Below are positions 8,904-60,709 of a DNA stretch of 64,000 bases, one piece after another (the stretch's first letter is position 1; each line of letters begins with the position of its first letter). A model generated the notes under the pieces. That model was not told where the DNA came from. It worked only from the letters and a program-made list of their open reading frames with translations, and did not search any database. The stretch comes from an uncultured Chthonomonadaceae bacterium (lineage in GTDB: Bacteria > Armatimonadota > Chthonomonadetes > Chthonomonadales > Chthonomonadaceae), in contig CAWIEK010000039.1 in the NCBI GenBank assembly GCA_963835065.1, positions 61,244-125,243 of the forward strand. Direction: 5' to 3'. Both the position numbers and the translations under genes were made by a program.

Positions 8904-11900
8904 TTTGCTGCCTTACGTAGTTCGTTCAATGTTTGCTGCAATGCCTTCATCTGCTCGGCGTAGCCGCCCAAGTCTTCCTGCTTGAGTTTCTGCCGCGCCG
9001 TATCGTACTGCTGCCCCGCCCGATCAATTAAAGTCCGCACTTCGATGGGGAGGGTGTTGGGTGTTGGGGGAATTGCCGATTGGCGATTGCCGATTGCCGA
9101 TTGGGCTACTCCTGTTTCCTGTTCCCTGTTCCCTGTTCCCTGAAATAGCGTTGCTAGAGCCTTATCTAGCGTGTCATCCATGGCTACGCTGTTGCCGAAC
9201 GCGACGATGACCTTTTGCAGTTTGGGCAGTTTGTTAGCGGACGCGCTGGACTCGACGTACAAGGGCGCGATGTACAGCAGCGATTGCTCGATGGGAATGA
9301 CGAGCATGTTGCCAATGGACGCGGTAGAGCCGCCCTGCCGCAGCAAGGCCAGTTGCGGCGAAATCACCTTGTCGCTGTTGATGCGCTGCACGATCTGCGA
9401 CGGTCCTTCCACCGACACCTGCTGCGGAAACCGATACAGCACCAGTTGCCCGTAATTGTCGCCGTCACACCGCGCGCACATCCACCCCAATATGTTTTGA
9501 TCCTCTTTTTTAATCGGCGCAAGCGGCGACATAAGGACGAACTCAGAGGTTGAGGGTTGGGTGTTGGGTGTTGGGGAAATTGCCGGTTGCCGATTGCCGA
9601 CTGCTGATTGGTCTTCTTCTGTTCCCTGACCCCTGACCCCTGACCCCTGACCCCTGATGTCGGGCAGGCGCATAATCACGTAATACGGTTCCATTTGCGC
9701 GAGGGCGCTGGTGGGAGCGTTGGCGGATGTGGGTTCGGAGGGGTTGGGTTCGGTGGGCACGGCCCAGACGTCTTCGTTGGAGTAGAAGACGTGCGGGTCT
9801 TCGACGTGGTAGGTGGCGTAGACGGAACGCTGGATGCGGAACAGGTCTTCCGGGTAGCGCAGGTGGGCGCGCAGGCCGGTGGGCATGTCGGCAAGCGGCT
9901 TGAGCAGGCCGGGATAAATGTGCCCGTAGGTTTCGGCAATCGGGTCGTTCGGGTCGCTGACATACAGATTGATCGCGCCGTCATAGGCGTCAATCGTCGC
10001 TTTCACGCTGTTGCGGATATAGTTGGGCGCGATGAACTGCGTACCCGTCACCAACATCTGCTGCGGCAGTGGAATAGGGGTAGCGATCCGACATGGTGTA
10101 GCAGTCTATCACCCACACCAATTTGCCGTTATCGGGATTAAGAACCAGATACGGGTCGCCGTCCTGCTGCACGAACGGTGCAACCGTTTGCAGCCGATCC
10201 CGAATGTCGCGCCGGTACAAAATGCGGGTGCGCGGCGTCAGGTTGCTCGCCAGCATCAGGTTCCAATCGCCCAACTTCGCCGCAAACGCCAATCGCCGCA
10301 GGTACGAACCGCCGATTTCAATGCCGCCCTTGCCTTTGTAGGTAGCGTAGTGATCCTGGGTGACTGGTGGCTGGTGACTGGTGGCTGATTGGTCTGTTCC
10401 CTGTTCCCTATTCCCTGTTCCCTGACTCGACGGATAATCAAACTCCGGCTGCTGCGTGTCTACGTAGACTTGCTGGTAAGCGATCTGGCCGTAGTAGATT
10501 TCGGGTTGGGTAACGGTCAGGTTGGCGGCTTCCGCGCTGGCTTTGGGCGGGAAGCCATCAATGAAGTAATCCGGGTCGCCTTGCAGGGTTTTGTTGACGG
10601 GTGACATGACCAGTCCGTAGCCGTGCGTGTACGCGAGTTTCTGGTTTTGCCATGTTTGCGCGGAATCGGGAAGCGCGCTGCTGTCGAGTTCGCGAGCGGC
10701 AAGCATCACCTGCCGGGTTCGCCCGTTGATAACGTAGCGGTCAATGTCAATGTTGGGGGCGTGGCTGCCTCCGACTGTCACTGTCTCAAACTTGTAATAC
10801 TGCTTGATCGTCTGGATTTGGCTGTACACCTTGCCCAAGATAGGGATGATCCCACAGCCGCACGTTGTCAAGCGTGTCGCGGTTCGCCTGTATTTGCGCC
10901 CCCGTCAAACTCTGGTCGGCGGGGAAATTGTCCACGCGCTGCACGTTGGCAAGCCCGAAGCCCTGCCGCGTATAACGGATGTTGCGGGCGATATATTCCT
11001 TTTCGCGGTCAAACTGGTTGGGAACGACAAACGTTTTCTGCACCACGCTCGGCCAAATGCCGCCCAAAACAACAAGGCTGAACGCCCACGCGCCCGCGCC
11101 GATAAGGATGGCCTTGAAACTGCGCCCGCGAATGGAAAGCAGGCAGGCAATGCCGACAAAAACAAGCGCCGCAATCTGCGCATTGAGGGCAAACAAGCGC
11201 TGATGCACGTCCACATAGCCCGCGCCGACATAAATGCCGTTGTCATTGAGCAGCAGGTCGTAAGCGTTTAAGCGCGTACCGAACGCCTGCGCGAACGCGA
11301 TACAGGCCAGCAAAATCAGCAGTTGAGCGCGAACACCGGGGCGCAGGTCGGGAAGGCCGGCAAACGTTTCCACCGCGCGATCCGCAACGTGAATCGCCAC
11401 CACCGCAATCGAAGTCAGCAGCAGAACGCCCATCAGAAAAGAGTACACGGACGCCAGAAACGGCAGGCGAAACACATAAAAGCCGATGTCATTGCCGAAA
11501 ACCGGGTCGCTTATCTTAAAGGGTACGCCATGCGTAAATTCCAGCCAGCGCGGCCAATTTTCCGCCATGATGCGTCCTACCCACAGGCTGATAAACGCCG
11601 TCACGCTGAACAAAACCACGCCCAACGACTTTTGTATCGTCCGGCCCCACTCCGGCCCGAAGCGCTCCATCAACATCCGGTCGGCATATTCGGGCGCAAG
11701 GCGTCGCGCCGCCACAATGTTGCCGTAAACAACCGCAAAAAACAGCCCGCCGAACACAACGAACAGCAGGGTTTTCGCCCAAACCGTCGTGGTGAACACA
11801 TTGGTATAGCCCACTTCCTGAAACCACAGCCAATCCGTATACAGCGGCAGGGCGTTGTGGTACAGCAGGAAGAGACAGAATAGCAGGCCAAACGCAAGCC

Positions 11901-12024
11901 AGCGTTTGGGGAAAGGTCGGTGTTCGGTGTTCAGGTGTTCAGGTGTTCGGGCGGAGGGGGGCGGGGTTTTGGTACTGTTCCCTGTTCCCTGTTCCCTGTT
12001 CCCTTGTTCGGGTCGAGACTTCAT
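8900..12024 (-). CDS. UPF0182 family membrane protein, split by two frameshifts (~10840, ~10060)
   Basis: DWLWFQEVGY, DPVFGNDIGFYVFRLPF, NVRLWD, YTHGYG, DGDPY, NYIRNSVKATIDAYDG and HLRYPEDLF motifs across three consecutive ORFs. Confidence 0.9.
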
Positions 12025-12813: not shown

Positions 12814-12873
12814 CCCGGCATGGTTTCTGCTTCCAATGTCAGGAACATGCCAAAACCGGAAAGGACGACTGCT

Positions 12874-14107
12874 ATGAATACCGATGCCGTTCGCTTGGAA
12901 GTGGGTCAGGATTGTTCTGTTCTCAGCGCTGAGACTGTCACCAAGCGGCTGATTGAAGCCACCGTGACCGCGCCCGATGCTGTTCGCGCCGCGGTTCGGT
13001 TGCCCCTGAATCTGGCGCTGATTATTGATCGCAGTGGCTCTATGTCCGGTCAAAAACTGGAGTTTGTCAAACAAGCCGCTTGCCATGTTCTGGACTGCCT
13101 GACGGAGCGCGATCAAGTCGCCATTGTCACATTCGATAACGAAGTTGAGGTTGTATCCGCAACCACGCCCATCACCCCACAGCAACGGAACCTTTTGAAA
13201 GCGCGTATTTGCGCTTTGCATACGGGCGGCAGTACAAACCTGTTCGACGGCTGGCTGCATGGCGTCCATGAAGTCGCCACGCATCTGATACCTACCGGCA
13301 TCAATCGCGCCTTACTCCTGACGGATGGCTGCGCCAATCAGGGCGAAACGCGCCGGGAAGTTCTGGAACACCATGCGCGCGAAATGCGGCTGCGCGGCGT
13401 GTCTACGTCCACATTCGGCGTTTCGCCTGATTACAATGAATTCCTTCTGGAAGGCATCGCCACCAATGGCGGCGGTAACTATCACTTTATTGAGCATCCC
13501 AACGACATTCCGCGCCTGTTTCAACAGGAGTTGGGCGAACTGCAAGCCATTACCGCGCGTCAGGCAACCCTGAAGTTTACTTTTCCTGCGGGAACCGCGC
13601 TCAATCTGCTTGGAGACCTGCCCCATGAAACGCTTGGCCGCGCAGTAACGGTTTCTCTGGGCGACTTGTTTGCGGGCAGCAAGCGCATCCTGTATGCGGA
13701 AGTTCTCACGCCGACGGGCAAGGCCGGAACTCTGACATTTCCCATCGAACTGTCTTATCTGGACCAAAGCCAAACGGTCCGAACGGAAACGGCAGCCGTC
13801 ACGTTTACCTACGACTTCAGAAAGCGCCGCAAAAGCCGCGCCCCGCGACTGGCTCCTGCGCCGACGAACGGCGGAACTGCGCGTCGCAACCGCAGAAGCC
13901 CGCGCCTTACGCATGGCCGAGGAAGGCAAGTATCAGGAAGCCGCCGAATCGCTGCTCAAGGTAGTCAATCACTACGCCAAACTGCTGGAACCGGGGCGCG
14001 TTACAGAACTGCAAGCGCTGGCGCAGACCATCCGCAATCAGCAACTCAGCAACATGGAACGCAAAAGCCGCCACGACATCGCTTATAAGAAGCGCTATAC
14101 TCGTTAG
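12874..14107 (+). CDS. von Willebrand factor type A domain protein (frameshift ~13815)
   Basis: MIDAS DRSGSM, GGSTNL and LLTDG motifs; helical C-terminus continues in the frame of ORF 13913..14107. Confidence 0.9.
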
Positions 14108-14245: not shown

Positions 14246-14531
14246 ATGACTTACGCAGAACGCATTGCCCGATGCCGTTGCCTTGATAACGGCATCGTTC
14301 AGGACAGAAATCATCTTCTACCCAGCAATGATGTGCGAATGCAGGCCGGAGATTACGAGTCGGGAAGAGTGGCTGGCAAGTGGGAGCCCAATCTTTCAAG
14401 GCATGCGCTGTGACCATCCCGGCGGTGCGCCCAGTGTCAACATCAAGTACCAGAAGATGTTTCAACGGGTGGCACACGGGAAATACATGCTGACCGAGGA
14501 TGGGAAAGCGCTGATAGCAGCACTCGTATAG
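14246..14531 (+). CDS. Small hypothetical protein, possibly winged-helix (probable frameshift ~14270)
   Basis: AGGAGG RBS before ATG 14246; continues in ORF 14265..14531 ending FQRVAHGKYMLTEDGK. Confidence 0.55.
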
Positions 14532-14561
14532 GGTGAGGCAAGGCGTCAACGCCAAACAATA

Positions 14562-14588
14562 TAATGCGCCGCTCATTACGGCGCATTA
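14562..14588. terminator. Hairpin between convergent genes
   Basis: 10-bp stem TAATGCGCCG / CGGCGCATTA. Confidence 0.55.
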
Positions 14589-15392
14589 CGGCTTTGGCGT
14601 AGTCTTGCCTTGCTGCGCAGTCAGCCTGTAGGTGAATCCGCCGCCGCCCCGACTCTGCTCGTCCATAATTTCGAGATAGTAGGTTCCTGACGCAGGAGCC
14701 GTGAAAACGATCTGCCGATCTGCTTTGGGACTTCCCACCGCAAGCGATAGCGAGATATGCCTGCTGTCCCGAATACGGACGACGGGATCAAGCTGGGAAT
14801 CGCCCCGGCCCGCGAACACGCGAAACTTCCACACTTCGCCCGCTTTGGCCTCGAATTTGAACGTGGAAGGCGTATCGTTTTCCACATTCCCGGTTACGGC
14901 GACAGAGGAGTCCGGCGTCAGCGTCAGCGGCATGGCCTGCGCAAACGTGCCGCTCGGCTTCTTTTCTTTTACTTCCACGCCTGCGCTGTCCACAATCGGA
15001 ATCTGCGCTGTTACCTTCCCGCCATCCGGCTGCACAAACGTCAGTTCCACATTTGCGAGTGGGCAGGTTGGCAGCGTCGTCACTTCCACGTCCACTTTTT
15101 GACTGCCCTTTTTCTTCTCGTCGCCTTCTGTTGCCTTTGCCGCGCCCAATTTTACCGCAACCCCCGGCTTGTTCGCTTTTACTTCTTTGGGCGTCAAATT
15201 CTCGCCATAAAATGTAAGCGTGACAGGCTTGCCGGCCACCACGTAGGGCAGGGAACGGGATTTTATCTCCGCCTTCCCCTCCGCCCGCGCAACCACGCCG
15301 CACCACAGGAGGCAGAGGAGAAGTGAACCACGGAGAACACGGAGGACACGGAGAGAAAATGAAGAGAAAAAGAGGGGGTTATATGGAGACAC
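14586..15392 (-). CDS. Secreted protein with a pre-peptidase C-terminal (PPC)-like domain
   Basis: Signal peptide ending ARA; FKFEAKAGE, LDPVVRIRD and FTAPASGTYYLEI...GGGFTYRL motifs. Confidence 0.8.
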   Translation of the reverse strand: MSPYNPLFFSSFSLRVLRVLRGSLLLCLLWCGVVARAEGKAEIKSRSLPYVVAGKPVTLTFYGENLTPKEVKANKPGVAVKLGAAKATEGDEKKKGSQKVDVEVTTLPTCPLANVELTFVQPDGGKVTAQIPIVDSAGVEVKEKKPSGTFAQAMPLTLTPDSSVAVTGNVENDTPSTFKFEAKAGEVWKFRVFAGRGDSQLDPVVRIRDSRHISLSLAVGSPKADRQIVFTAPASGTYYLEIMDEQSRGGGGFTYRLTAQQGKTTPKP

Positions 15393-15841
15393 GTTTGATA
15401 CCTTCCTTTAAGAGAGTGCGATTGAAGTTGAGGAGGTAGCCGCGTTTGAATTTCAACAACTTCAGGTAGGTCATAATCTGCGCTTGGTGGATAGTGTTGA
15501 GTTCGTCAACGGCTTTCAGTTCCAGCAACAGGCAATTTTCTACGATGATGTCGGCGCGGAAACCCGTGCCGAGGCATTGTTCACGATAGTAGACGGGTAC
15601 TTCCACTTCCTTTTGCGCCGAAATGCCCGCTTCTGCCAACTCTACCATCATGGCAAGTTCGTATACCGACTCCAACAGTCCCGGCCCAAGCTGCTTATGC
15701 ACGGCAAAAGCGGCATCCAAAACTCGTTGTATCAGTTCCTCATCACAATCTACCAACTCGTTTCTTTTCTCCATGTATTTCTCTCCTTGTTCTCCTTATT
15801 TCCCCTCATCTTTCTCCGTGTCCTCCGTGTTCTCCGTGGTT
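15326..15841. mobile_element. 516-bp cassette bounded by perfect 29-bp TIRs, carrying only a GxxExxY gene
   Basis: AACCACGGAGAACACGGAGGACACGGAGA (15326-15354) and its exact reverse complement (15813-15841); mobility is inferred. Confidence 0.7.
15379..15774 (-). CDS. GxxExxY family protein (PD-(D/E)XK-like)
   Basis: VHKQLGPGLLESVY, FRADIIVE, LELKAV, AQIMTYLK and GYLLNF motifs; AGGAG RBS. Confidence 0.95.
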   Translation of the reverse strand: MEKRNELVDCDEELIQRVLDAAFAVHKQLGPGLLESVYELAMMVELAEAGISAQKEVEVPVYYREQCLGTGFRADIIVENCLLLELKAVDELNTIHQAQIMTYLKLLKFKRGYLLNFNRTLLKEGIKRVSI

Positions 15842-17220
15842 TATTTCTTCCCCTGTGGTGTCAGCGCAATCTGGCGGATCAGTTTGCCGTCCTGCGCGTT
15901 CCAGAAGAGGAGTTTGCCGTCCTGTGTGCCGGCGGCGATGGTCTGGTTATCCTTGCCCACTGCCACGCTGTACACCCAATCGGTCGGCTCTTTCCATTCG
16001 CGCTTTTGCTGTGTGCCGTCGCCGTTGAACACTTTGACGACGTTGTTGCTTGCGCCCCACACGAGCAGATTGCCGTCATTGCTGAACACGCAGGCGTTGA
16101 TGCTGTCGCCCTCGCCCATCGTGCGGTCAGGGTTTTCAATGGTTCCGGGTTTGATCGTCCACACGCGGACGGTTTTGTCGAGGCTGGAAGTGGCGAGGCG
16201 GGTTCCATTCTGGTTGAAGGCAACGCGGGTCACGCCGTCCTGATGCGCGGTCAGGGCGGATTGGCGCTTCCACGTCGCGCTATCGAAAACTTTGGCGCTG
16301 CGGTCCAGGCTGCCGGTTGCCAGCAGTTTGCCGTCGGGGGAATAGGCAACGCCCATCACGCCCTCGGCATGGTCTTTAATGGTATGCGTACACTGGCCCG
16401 TGTCGCCGTTCCAGATACGCGCGGTTTTGTCCAGGCTGCCCGTCGCCAGTTCGCGGCTGTTGGGTTTCCACGCGACGGCATACACCACTTCCGTATGGCC
16501 TTCCAATTTGCGCAAAGGTTTCCACGTTTCCGCGTCGAAGATGACCACTTCGCCCGCTTTGCCCGGTTCGCCGCCCGCTGCCGCAAGGCATTTGCCGTCA
16601 CTGCTCCACGCCAGGCATTGCACCTGATCCGCGCAACCCGAAATGGTTTTGACCACTTCCCCGGTATTCGGATTCAGCAGCCGCACCACGCGAAACCCTC
16701 CCACCGCCAGCGTTGCGCCATCCGGGGAGTAGGCAAGTGCGGTAATGGGAGCAGGGGTGTTGGGTGTTGGGTGTTGGGTGTTGGGTGTTTTTCTGTTCCC
16801 TGTTCCCTGTTCCCTGTTCCCTCCCTCCGGCATCTGCGTACTGTCTATCTTTGCGCCTTCGTCAATCCAGCGGCGGACGAGGGCGATTTTTTCCAAATCC
16901 ATCGCGCCGCCGGGTGGCATTTTGGGCTTCAGTTCACCCGTCATATATTTGACGATCTGGCTTTCCGCGCCCTTGCCGAGCGTAATAGCCGCGCCGTGCC
17001 GCCCACCCGCAAGCAGTTTGTCGCGGGTTTCCATAGAATAGCCACTGGCAGGCGTAGCCCCGCTGTGGCAGCTCATGCACTGCGTTTTGAAGAGGGGCAA
17101 AATCTGGCGGCTGTAAGAAACCGGGGCAGGAGCCGCAGCCCGCGCCCCATTCGGCAATACCAAAAGGAGGGATAGCAGCATCAGGCAGGAAAGTAAAGTT
17201 TTCATACCCTGTTGGAGCAA
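15841..17220 (-). CDS. Planctomycete-type cytochrome c domain + WD40 repeat protein
   Basis: Signal peptide, CMSCH, MPP and WIDEGA, followed by about 7 WD40 repeats. Confidence 0.92.
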   Translation of the reverse strand: MLQQGMKTLLSCLMLLSLLLVLPNGARAAAPAPVSYSRQILPLFKTQCMSCHSGATPASGYSMETRDKLLAGGRHGAAITLGKGAESQIVKYMTGELKPKMPPGGAMDLEKIALVRRWIDEGAKIDSTQMPEGGNREQGTGNRKTPNTQHPTPNTPAPITALAYSPDGATLAVGGFRVVRLLNPNTGEVVKTISGCADQVQCLAWSSDGKCLAAAGGEPGKAGEVVIFDAETWKPLRKLEGHTEVVYAVAWKPNSRELATGSLDKTARIWNGDTGQCTHTIKDHAEGVMGVAYSPDGKLLATGSLDRSAKVFDSATWKRQSALTAHQDGVTRVAFNQNGTRLATSSLDKTVRVWTIKPGTIENPDRTMGEGDSINACVFSNDGNLLVWGASNNVVKVFNGDGTQQKREWKEPTDWVYSVAVGKDNQTIAAGTQDGKLLFWNAQDGKLIRQIALTPQGKK

Positions 17221-17370
17221 AGGAAAGCAAATATGTTGCAGGCGCGTTAAAGGGCCGGAGGAACACCGCGAACAAAGCGGAGTATAATAGAAGCATGAGC
17301 AACGTGGTCTGCGCGAATGGCAGCGAAAACCCCCTTGCCTGACCGTTCGGCAACGATGAGGAGGTATTCC

Positions 17371-17718
17371 ATGGAAATTACCGTAACCATTTCGGAGGAA
17401 ATGCAGCGCAAGTTAGAAGACTTGGCGCAGGAAAGCGGCTTGAGTGTAGCCGATTGCGCCCATGACATGCTGGAAGGCAATCTTGAACGATTGCATCTGT
17501 ATGCCTGGTCGGAGCCAAGCTACTACGAAGAAACCTTAGCCCGCTTCACGAATAGGACGCCGGAGCAGCTTGCCGAAGCGCGCTGCCGCGCGCTGGCCTC
17601 CGCGCCGCCACCGCGTCCTTTGCCGCCCGGTAAAACACTGGCCGATATGGTTTTCGGCAAGCTGCGCGATAACCATACGGACGAAGAAATTATCGCGATC
17701 CTAAAGGAGATGTCCTGA
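17371..17718 (+). CDS. Putative antitoxin (ribbon-helix-helix-like N-terminus)
   Basis: GAGGAGG RBS; MEITVTISEEMQRKLEDLAQESG; lies 2 nt upstream of a PIN gene. Confidence 0.7.
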   Translation: MEITVTISEEMQRKLEDLAQESGLSVADCAHDMLEGNLERLHLYAWSEPSYYEETLARFTNRTPEQLAEARCRALASAPPPRPLPPGKTLADMVFGKLRDNHTDEEIIAILKEMS

Positions 17719-17720
17719 CG

Positions 17721-18179
17721 ATGATTCCAAACTCTGACCTAATGGATACAAACATCTTTGTACATCTAATCCGAGGCGATTATACCGGGCTGCGCATCAA
17801 AGCGGAGTTGGACCCGTTTATGGCCGAAGTCAGACCCGGCTATTGTACCGTGACAAACGGCGAAATTCGATCATTTGCCAACACAAACAACTGGGGACGT
17901 GACAGAGTAAAGCAGATGCTCTTTATGCTCAGTTACTTCATTCCCTACTCGATAGAAACGCCGGAAATTTACACGGCCTACGCCACCATTGATGAGTACA
18001 GTCAGAGGAGAGGCATCAGAATGGGCAAAAACGATCTCTGGATTGCGGCAGTTGCCAGCGTGTCGAATTTCAGGCTGCTGACCACCGACGCCGACTTTGA
18101 TCATCTTGACACGGTGTTTCTGAACCGTGTTCGCATCGTCTATGATCAGGACAAGCAGATAGCGGAGGAACAGGCATGA
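17721..18179 (+). CDS. PIN-domain (VapC-like) toxin
   Basis: MDTNIF, GEI, MGKNDLWIAA and LLTTDADF motifs. Confidence 0.9.
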   Translation: MIPNSDLMDTNIFVHLIRGDYTGLRIKAELDPFMAEVRPGYCTVTNGEIRSFANTNNWGRDRVKQMLFMLSYFIPYSIETPEIYTAYATIDEYSQRRGIRMGKNDLWIAAVASVSNFRLLTTDADFDHLDTVFLNRVRIVYDQDKQIAEEQA

Positions 18180-56737: not shown

Positions 56738-57508
56738 ATGAATATACAAGAAGCGTTGTACGAATTGGGAGTGCGCGACGATACGCTTTCCGAGCCGGAG
56801 AAGGCACAGTTAGACAAAGATGGATTTCTGCCCCTGCGCGGCGTTTTGACGCAGGAGCAGATTGAGGCTTTGCGGCGGCGGCAGGCGGAATTGCTGGCGG
56901 ACGAAGGCGACAACGCGGGCAAGGAAGTGCATCAGGAAGCGGGAACCGACCGGCTTTCCGACCTGATTAACAAAGACCCTATGTATCATATTGTGCTGAC
57001 CACGCCGCGCCTGCTGGCCGGAATCGCGCATGTGCTGGAAGGCGACTTAAAACTCTCGTCGCTCAACAGCCGCTCCGCCCTGCCCGGTCAGGGCTTGCAG
57101 GCGCTTCATGCCGATTGGGGACGATTGGAAACGCCCGGCGCGTACCAGGTCTGCAACAGCATCTGGCTGCTCGACGACTTTACGCCCGACAACGGCGCGA
57201 CCCGCGTGGTTCCCGGCTCCCAGGCGACCGGCAAAGCGCCCTCGGACGAAATGAAGGACCCGCGCGAAGCCCACCCGAACGAAATGCTGGTACAGGGCAA
57301 AGCCGGTGATGTCGTAATCTTCAACTCGCATACGTGGCACGGTGGTACAATCAACCGAACCGATAAGCCCCGCCGCGCCCTGCACGGCTACTTCTGCCGC
57401 CGCCACCATCCGCCGCAATTGGATCAGAAGAAGTACCTGCGCCCCGAAACCGCCGCGCAACTCAGCCTCGCCGCGCAGGTTGTGCTTGGCGTCGAAGGAG
57501 AGGATTAA
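56738..57508 (+). CDS. Phytanoyl-CoA dioxygenase (PhyH) family protein
   Basis: DGFL, LHAD, NGATRVVPGS, GDVVIFN..TWHGG and R motifs. Confidence 0.92.
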   Translation: MNIQEALYELGVRDDTLSEPEKAQLDKDGFLPLRGVLTQEQIEALRRRQAELLADEGDNAGKEVHQEAGTDRLSDLINKDPMYHIVLTTPRLLAGIAHVLEGDLKLSSLNSRSALPGQGLQALHADWGRLETPGAYQVCNSIWLLDDFTPDNGATRVVPGSQATGKAPSDEMKDPREAHPNEMLVQGKAGDVVIFNSHTWHGGTINRTDKPRRALHGYFCRRHHPPQLDQKKYLRPETAAQLSLAAQVVLGVEGED

Positions 57509-57710
57509 ACCACGGAGAACACGGAGGGGAACGGGAGAGAGGAGACAAGGAGAGAGGGAGACATACTTACCACGGATGGAACGGATAACGCGGATTAACA
57601 CGGATAAAGAGACGACTTCTGAATTTGATCCGCGCTTATCCGTTTCATCCGTTTGATCTGTGGTAAGTATTTCCCTTCTCCTCCCCGTGTCCCCCGTGTT
57701 CCCCGTGGTT
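57508..57710. repeat. Nested gene-less elements: outer (CACGGAG)n arms, inner (CGGAT)n arms at 57563-57670
   Basis: Outer left arm shares its first 20 nt with the GxxExxY TIR; inner ATACTTACCACGGAT / ATCTGTGGTAAGTAT. Confidence 0.85.
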
Positions 57711-60444: not shown

Positions 60445-60637
60445 AACCGCGAAACACGCGAACCAAGCGAAAAAGAATCAAAACACATACAAACCACGGA
60501 GGACACGGAGAACACGAAGAAATATGCACAGAGAGTACAACCCGTTGTGCCTATTCTCTTGCTAATCCCATAGCATCCTGCCTCATCTCCTTGGTCTTTG
60601 TGTTTTGCTGTTTGTTTGGTTCGCGTGTTTCGCGGTT
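60445..60637. repeat. Gene-less element with perfect 22-bp TIR containing a solo GxxExxY-type arm (60492-60520)
   Basis: AACCGCGAAACACGCGAACCAA / TTGGTTCGCGTGTTTCGCGGTT; inner AACCACGGAGGACACGGAGAACACG. Confidence 0.85.
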
Positions 60638-60709
60638 TCTCATTGCGTTTTTCTGCCGAGTATAGGGTATCAAGACACCTGCAAAGGTGTACTGGTGTAG
60701 AGGAGAATA

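Follow-up and report, generated by a model that had tools for sequence, protein, structure and literature searches.

The window analysed here, a 64,000-nt stretch that forms part of contig C39 of genome G000, contains a small gene cassette at the junction of two larger protein genes. Read on the minus strand, the order is a PSCyt1 and WD40 gene (15841-17220), an arm, the motif AAGGAG, a GxxExxY gene, a second arm and a PPC-domain gene, all co-directional. The 5′ arm (15813-15841) and the 3′ arm (15326-15354) are exact reverse complements of one another, each with 29 nt consisting of AAC followed by three 9-mer units; the inverted repeat extends to 36 nt if two mismatches are allowed. Base 15841 is shared, being both the last base of the WD40 stop codon (TAA, 15841-15843) and the first base of the arm, and the arm-end consensus also has T(A/G) ahead of AAC. 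Between the arms lie AAGGAG (15783-15788), the likely ribosome-binding site, and, with its ATG 8 nt further on, the 131-aa GxxExxY gene (15379-15774), whose product has a predicted PD-(D/E)XK fold. The downstream gene (14586-15392; 268 aa) has its first 22 codons inside the cassette; the PF04151 match behind its PPC assignment scores below the family cut-off. A plus-strand ORF of 563 aa (15484-17175) is presumably no more than a shadow frame of WD40.

This architecture agrees with the original prediction, made from the sequence of the window, of exact 29-bp inverted repeats around a GxxExxY gene with its own ribosome-binding site, set co-directionally between a WD40/cytochrome c gene and a PPC gene, with one repeat beginning inside the upstream TAA and with no target-site duplication; none of 3 nt or more is found around the cassette (15326-15841). 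Elsewhere in the window, a small ORF and a PIN-domain gene lie on the opposite strand at 17317-18179, between a DUF1501 cluster and the WD40 gene, and are likely a VapBC-type toxin-antitoxin pair. A VWA-domain gene occupies 12820-14088 and looks frameshifted near its C-terminal end; the gene before it is presumably a MerR-type regulator.

The cassette appears to be tied to its downstream neighbour, a link that, like the replacement of arms in place described below, goes beyond the original prediction. There is no start codon in the PPC frame between the arm and the hydrophobic leader, and the only start available to that frame is a GTG (15390-15392) in the last GxxExxY codons, 8 nt after AAGGAAGG (15401-15408), which also falls within those codons. 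Downstream of it, the in-frame translation of the 3′ arm is LRVLRVLRG. Loss of the cassette from this junction is likely prevented because its last codons would give the PPC gene its ribosome-binding site and GTG, and the 3′ arm is likely read as the basic n-region with which the signal peptide starts. From the sequence, translation is predicted to continue from a terminal GTG into a long ORF with a leader at 9 of 13 distinct loci of the protein's clade, a count that excludes four loci of Planctomycete type whose arms are arranged differently, and at four of eight sites, which is little above one in three. The 9-nt unit preserves the reading frame, and leaders of 22, 21 and 17 codons and of 28, 20 and 24 codons stay in frame despite their changes in length.

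The 131-aa protein is a member of the GxxExxY family, scoring 141.7 bits against TIGR04256 (cut-off 35) and 140.7 bits against PF13366 (cut-off 22). PF13366 is the only Pfam family matching it, and the HUH/Y1 transposase domain (PF01797) was not found in it. The closest folds to its predicted structure (pLDDT 94) are Cas4 SSO0001 (4ic1; Foldseek E 1.7e-3; VIA Z 7.6, rmsd 3.2, 98 aligned) and, tied with it, other PD-(D/E)XK nucleases, all of these matches being middling; a sequence search for relatives of solved structure gave none at E ≤ 1. Residues E35, D75, E85, K87, Q99 and Y103 are retained in 52-53 of 53 diverse homologues, and the fold together with the E, D, ExK and QxxxY residues is that of Cas4/RecB-type enzymes, in line with the PD-(D/E)XK-like fold originally predicted. 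A shared fold does not prove function. Between G000 and its sister species G002, pN is 0.10 and pS 0.75; the conserved catalytic residues and a pN far below pS indicate that the gene is intact and under selection. From the modelled structure and these residues we infer that the protein is probably an active nuclease. Its homodimer prediction scored 0.00, which speaks neither for nor against a dimer. In many homologues (P0010, P0047, P0079, P0082, P0087 and P0117), the 5′ arm is annotated as the protein N-terminus (MNHGEHG...), beginning at an ATG in the arm end.

Two questions follow from this organization: (i) whether the arms belong with the gene; and (ii) whether gene and arms move together as a unit. 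With regard to the first, the original prediction had expected GxxExxY genes to be flanked by inverted repeats more often than other genes, and they are. We collected 59 GxxExxY loci and scored 49, after dropping one duplicate, five partial matches and four loci with short flanks. The inverted-repeat score reached 14 or more at 38 of the 49 and fell below 14 at the remaining 11. Among the controls, only 12 of 1500 long ORFs from G000 reached this score, and none of 93 shifted windows did. Arm similarity climbs with protein identity (Mantel rho 0.23, 0/2000 permutations): arms match across loci in 0.6% of 181 pairs below 35% identity and in 42% of 43 pairs above 65%. The word of the present arms flanks all 17 loci with more than 60% identity to the protein and 2 of 23 with less than 53%, and every GxxExxY clade has its own word. 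The protein's clade (support 100/98) includes members from Armatimonadota, Acidobacteriota, Planctomycetota and Pseudomonadota at differing sites. Because the same clade and word recur at different sites in four phyla, gene plus word have evidently moved horizontally. At the Planctomycete-type loci L062, L064, L156 and L157, the arms point outward, and the gene lies between two elements rather than inside one.

The same dependence is seen across the order. In a survey of 68 genomes of Chthonomonadales, the protein clade (at least 67% identity; next best 50%) is present in five, in single copy each. The word is abundant in 5/5 clade-carrying genomes and in 1/63 without the clade. Its GG form occurs in 22-86 copies in the five carriers, 14 in G001, one in G016 and none in the other 61, which include 29 with other GxxExxY genes. 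Counted by genus, the association is 4/4 versus 0/37 (Fisher p 1e-5), in a test where kin are not independent. The word is almost confined to genomes with a close relative of the gene, and the protein is therefore likely the dedicated enzyme of the repeat system.

Within G000 there are about 110-116 arms of the 9-base word, forming 32 inward pairs and no outward pairs within 600 nt; 52 of the 116 arms are unpaired by the search pattern used. These figures and the movement between phyla lend support to the original proposal that the cassette is the gene-bearing member of a RAYT/REP-like repeat family. Empty copies had been expected throughout the window, which is true of the genome at large; the window itself has only two more elements of this word, and its other arrays are of different words. 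One of the two, a gene-less sibling at 57508-57710, has outer arms of the cassette word and nested inner arms of another word, and the second, a gene-less mosaic at 60445-60640, has outer CGCGAAA-type arms and one inner cassette-word arm at 60493. Gene-less elements in the window and at many sites in G000 and G002 nest, with the words of several clades inside each other, and those that nest often carry different words on the left and right. Of the 116 arms, 33 lie 2 nt after the stop of a long frame; we do not count this adjacency as evidence of targeting, because T(A/G)A is itself part of the arm-end sequence and some of the frames are antisense shadows.

On balance we lean towards the explanation that, within the family, this cassette alone bears a gene, and that its protein is likely a word-specific nuclease that would maintain and spread the arms, much as RAYT does for REPINs, with an unrelated enzyme. 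Several observations stand against it. First, words persist without a gene: in G001 (97% complete), 31 arms look intact although the clade is absent, and G000 (92% complete assembly), whose three GxxExxY genes are at 48-50% identity, has 137 CGCGAAA-type and 11 CAGGAT-type arms and no matching gene. Second, a further gene-word pair supports the dependence inside the genus, its word having 95 copies in G002, where the gene is present, 51 in G000, where one arm remains at the site of the gene, and two in G001, but the match is looser beyond the genus: relatives at 58-64% identity hold 0, 0 and 4 exact copies together with variant words, and G042 has seven copies and no close gene. Third, all three four-helix-bundle (TIGR02436) genes of G000, with no known catalytic activity, share the layout, lying between inverted arms of 7/8-mers (G000:C8:31944-32384, C25:13989-14550 and C33:57148-57633), and such arms may therefore form in the absence of a dedicated nuclease.

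The last observation raises an alternative in which the shells arise by slippage, fold-back template switching, homologous conversion or some other enzyme, and the GxxExxY gene merely rides in them or resolves their hairpins. We regard this as unlikely, if well worth weighing. Besides the four-helix-bundle genes and the words without a gene in G000 and G001, it would account for the gene-less shells at site B and at the WD40-PPC junction in some relatives, and for the sheer number of periodic inverted-arm elements in G000 (at least 520, 409 of them with 7-mer and 83 with 8-mer units; in the window, for example, at 9052-9142, 9556-9657, 11917-12009 and 16755-16822). It does not readily explain the strict match of word and clade over four genera and four phyla or the invariance of the catalytic residues, and another enzyme is not suggested by the four Y1 transposase and two reverse transcriptase loci of G000, none of which has the cassette word within 1.5 kb. 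A caretaker role is nevertheless compatible with the data, because it too would give word-clade matching. Several of the 7-mer arrays lie within coding sequence, such as that encoding GNREQGTGN in WD40 and membrane-protein genes.

The second question can be addressed at the junction itself. A PPC orthologue is found in 21 of the 68 genomes and adjoins the WD40 gene in 20. Three of these 20 junctions hold the cassette (G000, G002 at 87% and G015 at 68%), one has a gene-less element with another 9-mer word, two have other inserts and 14 are empty; at the empty junctions, stop and start are mostly close or overlapping. The gene-less element (L034, in G011) has an ATG in the left arm, from which an uninterrupted frame leads into the PPC gene, so that the whole hairpin of this element may be translated. 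At one 'empty' junction (L033, in G001), the PPC protein begins MTLRVPHG, which resembles one arm unit plus an arm end and is possibly a remnant of a lost cassette. Another junction follows a gene whose end resembles that of DUF1501 genes. It has a full cassette in G046 and in a metagenome contig, and gene-less elements in G001, G002 and G000, the orthology of the gene-less sites being judged by eye (loci L205 in G046, L158, L089 in G001 and L137 in G002).

In a tree of the WD40 and PPC genes (19 rows, with G050 and G066 left out), two empty genomes cluster with G000 and G002 at 100/99, and a clade of the three carriers is rejected (p-AU 0.0004). The tree of the GxxExxY gene is mostly unresolved within the clade and does not reject a single origin at the junction (p-AU 0.28). 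Either the cassette was gained twice at this junction, or it was gained once and then lost several times. Between G000 and G002, silent changes affect 56/108 codons of the gene versus 198/583 in the flanks (p 5e-4); the C19 orthologue has 37/121. The gene has the highest pS (0.78) of 109 G000-G002 frame pairs, a filtered set that includes shadow frames, the next value being 0.61. Its GC3 is 0.59 versus 0.66-0.71. The excess of silent divergence fits an allele replaced in place, and could also come from weaker codon bias. Synteny of the gene at this site, which would be expected of simple inheritance, does hold in G002 and G015; the carriers form no clade, silent divergence exceeds that of the flanks and the clade spans four phyla, which argues that the gene at this junction was not plainly inherited. 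A free-standing homing endonuclease, which would cut the cassette-free allele and be copied in by repair, would also fit the repeated filling of this junction and the surplus of silent change; a conserved target does not show up among the 14 empty junctions.

These comparisons also bear on an alternative in which the protein is a new transposase and the cassette an autonomous insertion sequence, moving as an arm-gene-arm unit and leaving MITE-like derivatives. Insertion sequences and MITEs have terminal inverted repeats, gene-less relatives and empty orthologous sites, and the cassette is like them in all three respects: its terminal repeats are exact, 14 of the 20 orthologous junctions are empty, and close homologues occupy eight or more other sites across four phyla. 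Paralogous cassettes are also present or absent between sister species, the C3 cassette of G000 being missing in G002; at the C19 cassette, the left-arm word differs between the two. However, there is one copy per genome in 5/5 carriers, and the cassette departs from such elements: its gene is not multi-copy, a target duplication is absent, the gene-less copies are not near-identical and the protein has no known transposase fold. Among 31 pairs, whatever the end offset, no more than one has a duplication of 3 nt or more (3-5 nt); 2-nt flank matches, present in 10 of the 31, fall on the self-complementary TA at the arm end. No gene remnant occurs in 30 gene-less interiors, and the reading of gene-less elements as deletion derivatives was rejected on this ground; no two of these interiors are more than 86% alike. 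Of 72,556 plasmid records, 8 carry a homologue, and none of 50,697 phage records does. Among contigs from four DNA sequencing runs over 14500-16600, which cannot show absence, there is no joint that precisely removes the cassette; arm-to-arm joints among them have short sides and fit gene-less elements elsewhere. We therefore consider an autonomous insertion sequence very unlikely. The original description of the cassette as a minimal mobile element with terminal inverted repeats stands as far as movement between phyla is concerned; the single copies, the residence at the same junction in two relatives, the missing target duplication and the dissimilar gene-less interiors do not go with it.

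What changes between relatives is the content of the sites. Both arms of the cassette differ from those of G000 at the same positions in G002, and likewise in G015. More generally, paired arms agree beyond permuted pairs (0.55 versus 1.39 mismatches in 16 nt, 0/5000), and this holds without the gene too. Of 50 arms of G002 from 36 loci, anchoring in G000 succeeded for 45: 10 are the same there, 17 are variants of the same word, five are replaced by 8-mer arrays and 13 were scored as 'none'; by eye, the last group includes four other 9-mer-type words, two degenerate copies and one purine array. At L118, L128 and L147, both arms are replaced by other words or by a four-helix-bundle cassette, L147 being a gene-less 9-mer element in G002 opposite the four-helix-bundle cassette of the C33 site in G000. 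The sites persist while their contents are rewritten, unlike those of an active insertion sequence or MITE. Copying of host flanks across the element was considered and rejected: positions -12 to -7 are not mirrored, and 1586 of 5000 permutations were as good.

The genome comparisons thus show a linkage of gene and word, a single gene copy, long residence at operon stop/start junctions and rare moves between phyla, and in-place replacement of arms and whole shells between sister species with no target duplication. Under the favoured explanation of a word-specific nuclease, the protein would bind the triple word and nick near the T(A/G)AAC arm end, and repair would copy from the partner arm or from another element. 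Such copying would make both arms change together and shells replace shells at occupied sites. Occasionally a shell, with or without the gene, might reach a new junction. The copied unit would be the arm or the shell, rather than a cut-and-paste transposon.

It is also conceivable that the element acts at the RNA level and does in mRNA what intervening sequences do in 23S rRNA: the arms would pair in the transcript and be cut by RNase III or by the protein, tuning operon expression. The sense transcript of the cassette folds into a stem of more than 50 pairs (z -6.6; 0/100 shuffles equal), and GxxExxY cassettes run co-directionally inside operons. ORF-bearing 23S rRNA intervening sequences are similar in their length of about 0.4-0.5 kb, ~28-bp terminal stem around one small ORF and patchy spread, and their S23p cargo is a four-helix bundle, recalling the four-helix-bundle genes of G000 with their periodic-arm layout; the cassette differs in lying between protein genes, in its nuclease-fold cargo, in the lack of G-U bias and in its probably coding 3′ arm (PMC4990558). 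There is no sense-strand excess of G-U pairs, with 81 versus 109 in 31 gene loci (of the 49, those with scores of at least 18, two Planctomycete loci being excluded) and 77 versus 79 in 18 oriented gene-less elements, and the cassette has no Rfam match at E ≤ 1. Excision would moreover delete the likely PPC start, and the protein fold is nearest to DNA nucleases, though fold alone shows no function. An RNA-level role is, in our judgement, quite unlikely.

The closest parallel is the REPIN-RAYT system (PMC3116915, PMC5581495 and 10.1101/2021.07.10.451892). In both, a single-copy enzyme gene (here in 5/5 carriers) is flanked by its own repeat, inverted doublets are scattered between genes in tens to hundreds (here 116 arms and 32 inward pairs), and a genome can have several gene-repeat pairs. 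REPINs become fewer after loss of the gene; here there is one such gradient, the 95, 51 and 2 copies of the second word, but also the intact-looking arms of G001. The differences are that RAYT is an HUH/Y1 enzyme whereas the cassette enzyme is PD-(D/E)XK; that REPs are GTAG-tagged palindromes whereas the arms are tandem, non-palindromic 9-10-mers; that RAYT is vertically inherited and congruent with its host whereas the GxxExxY gene crosses phyla and its carriers form no clade on the flank tree; and that cassette sites persist while arms and interiors are replaced, with the cassette probably translated into host genes. REPtrons and TIRtrons/TIRYT likewise have an enzyme gene enclosed by long terminal inverted repeats, and these repeats recur without the gene as a family of their own; TIRYT keep the HUH motif and catalytic tyrosine, whereas the cassette has no tyrosine transposase, and the accessible part of that source describes no periodic arms for TIRYT (PMC3733652). 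By analogy, the cassette would work like REPIN-RAYT and TIRtrons, yet it belongs with neither by enzyme and repeat type. Three Y1 transposase genes of G000 (C42:76532, C51:103107 and C49:523763) have their own long, TIRtron-like inverted repeats, unrelated to the 9-mer word, and the arms at C49:523763 are a 14-mer tandem. Further repeat types for comparison are STRR heptamers and Rickettsia palindromic elements.

The cassette gene is a member of a very large family (4058 GxxExxY/PDDEXK_3 homologues at E ≤ 1e-20 in one search) that is listed as function unknown with multiple transfers, in an entry whose available part mentions no flanking repeats (PMC3424549). The family name or accession also occurs in 10.1101/2021.01.26.428298, PMC12085832 and PMC9756366. 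In the freely accessible main texts searched, we found no publication linking GxxExxY/PF13366 to flanking repeats, and the repeat system is apparently undescribed. What this locus adds is an order-wide test of gene against word, a series of filled, gene-less and empty states at one junction, and evidence for in-place replacement.

Finally, we note several implications. The locus gives the GxxExxY/PDDEXK_3 family a candidate substrate, with the words of other clades as non-cognate controls and a catalytic mutant as a further control, and the function of the family therefore becomes a question for direct assay. It also suggests a possible origin for the abundant periodic intergenic repeats of poorly studied phyla, and illustrates how an element can become hard to lose by supplying the start of a host gene. 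A broader proposal, which we offer tentatively and hold to be possible rather than probable, is that the large GxxExxY family consists of Cas4-like nucleases, every member being specific for a 9-10-base repeat word of its own. Such enzymes would rewrite DNA in place, exchanging arms and entire shells at occupied gene junctions through nick-primed copying, with neither a transposase nor a target duplication involved, and would become entrenched by providing host genes with starts and signal-peptide ends. If this is true, such word-specific rewriting nucleases would constitute a new class of genomic replicator, and thousands of nuclease-target pairs could be read directly from genomes as a natural library.
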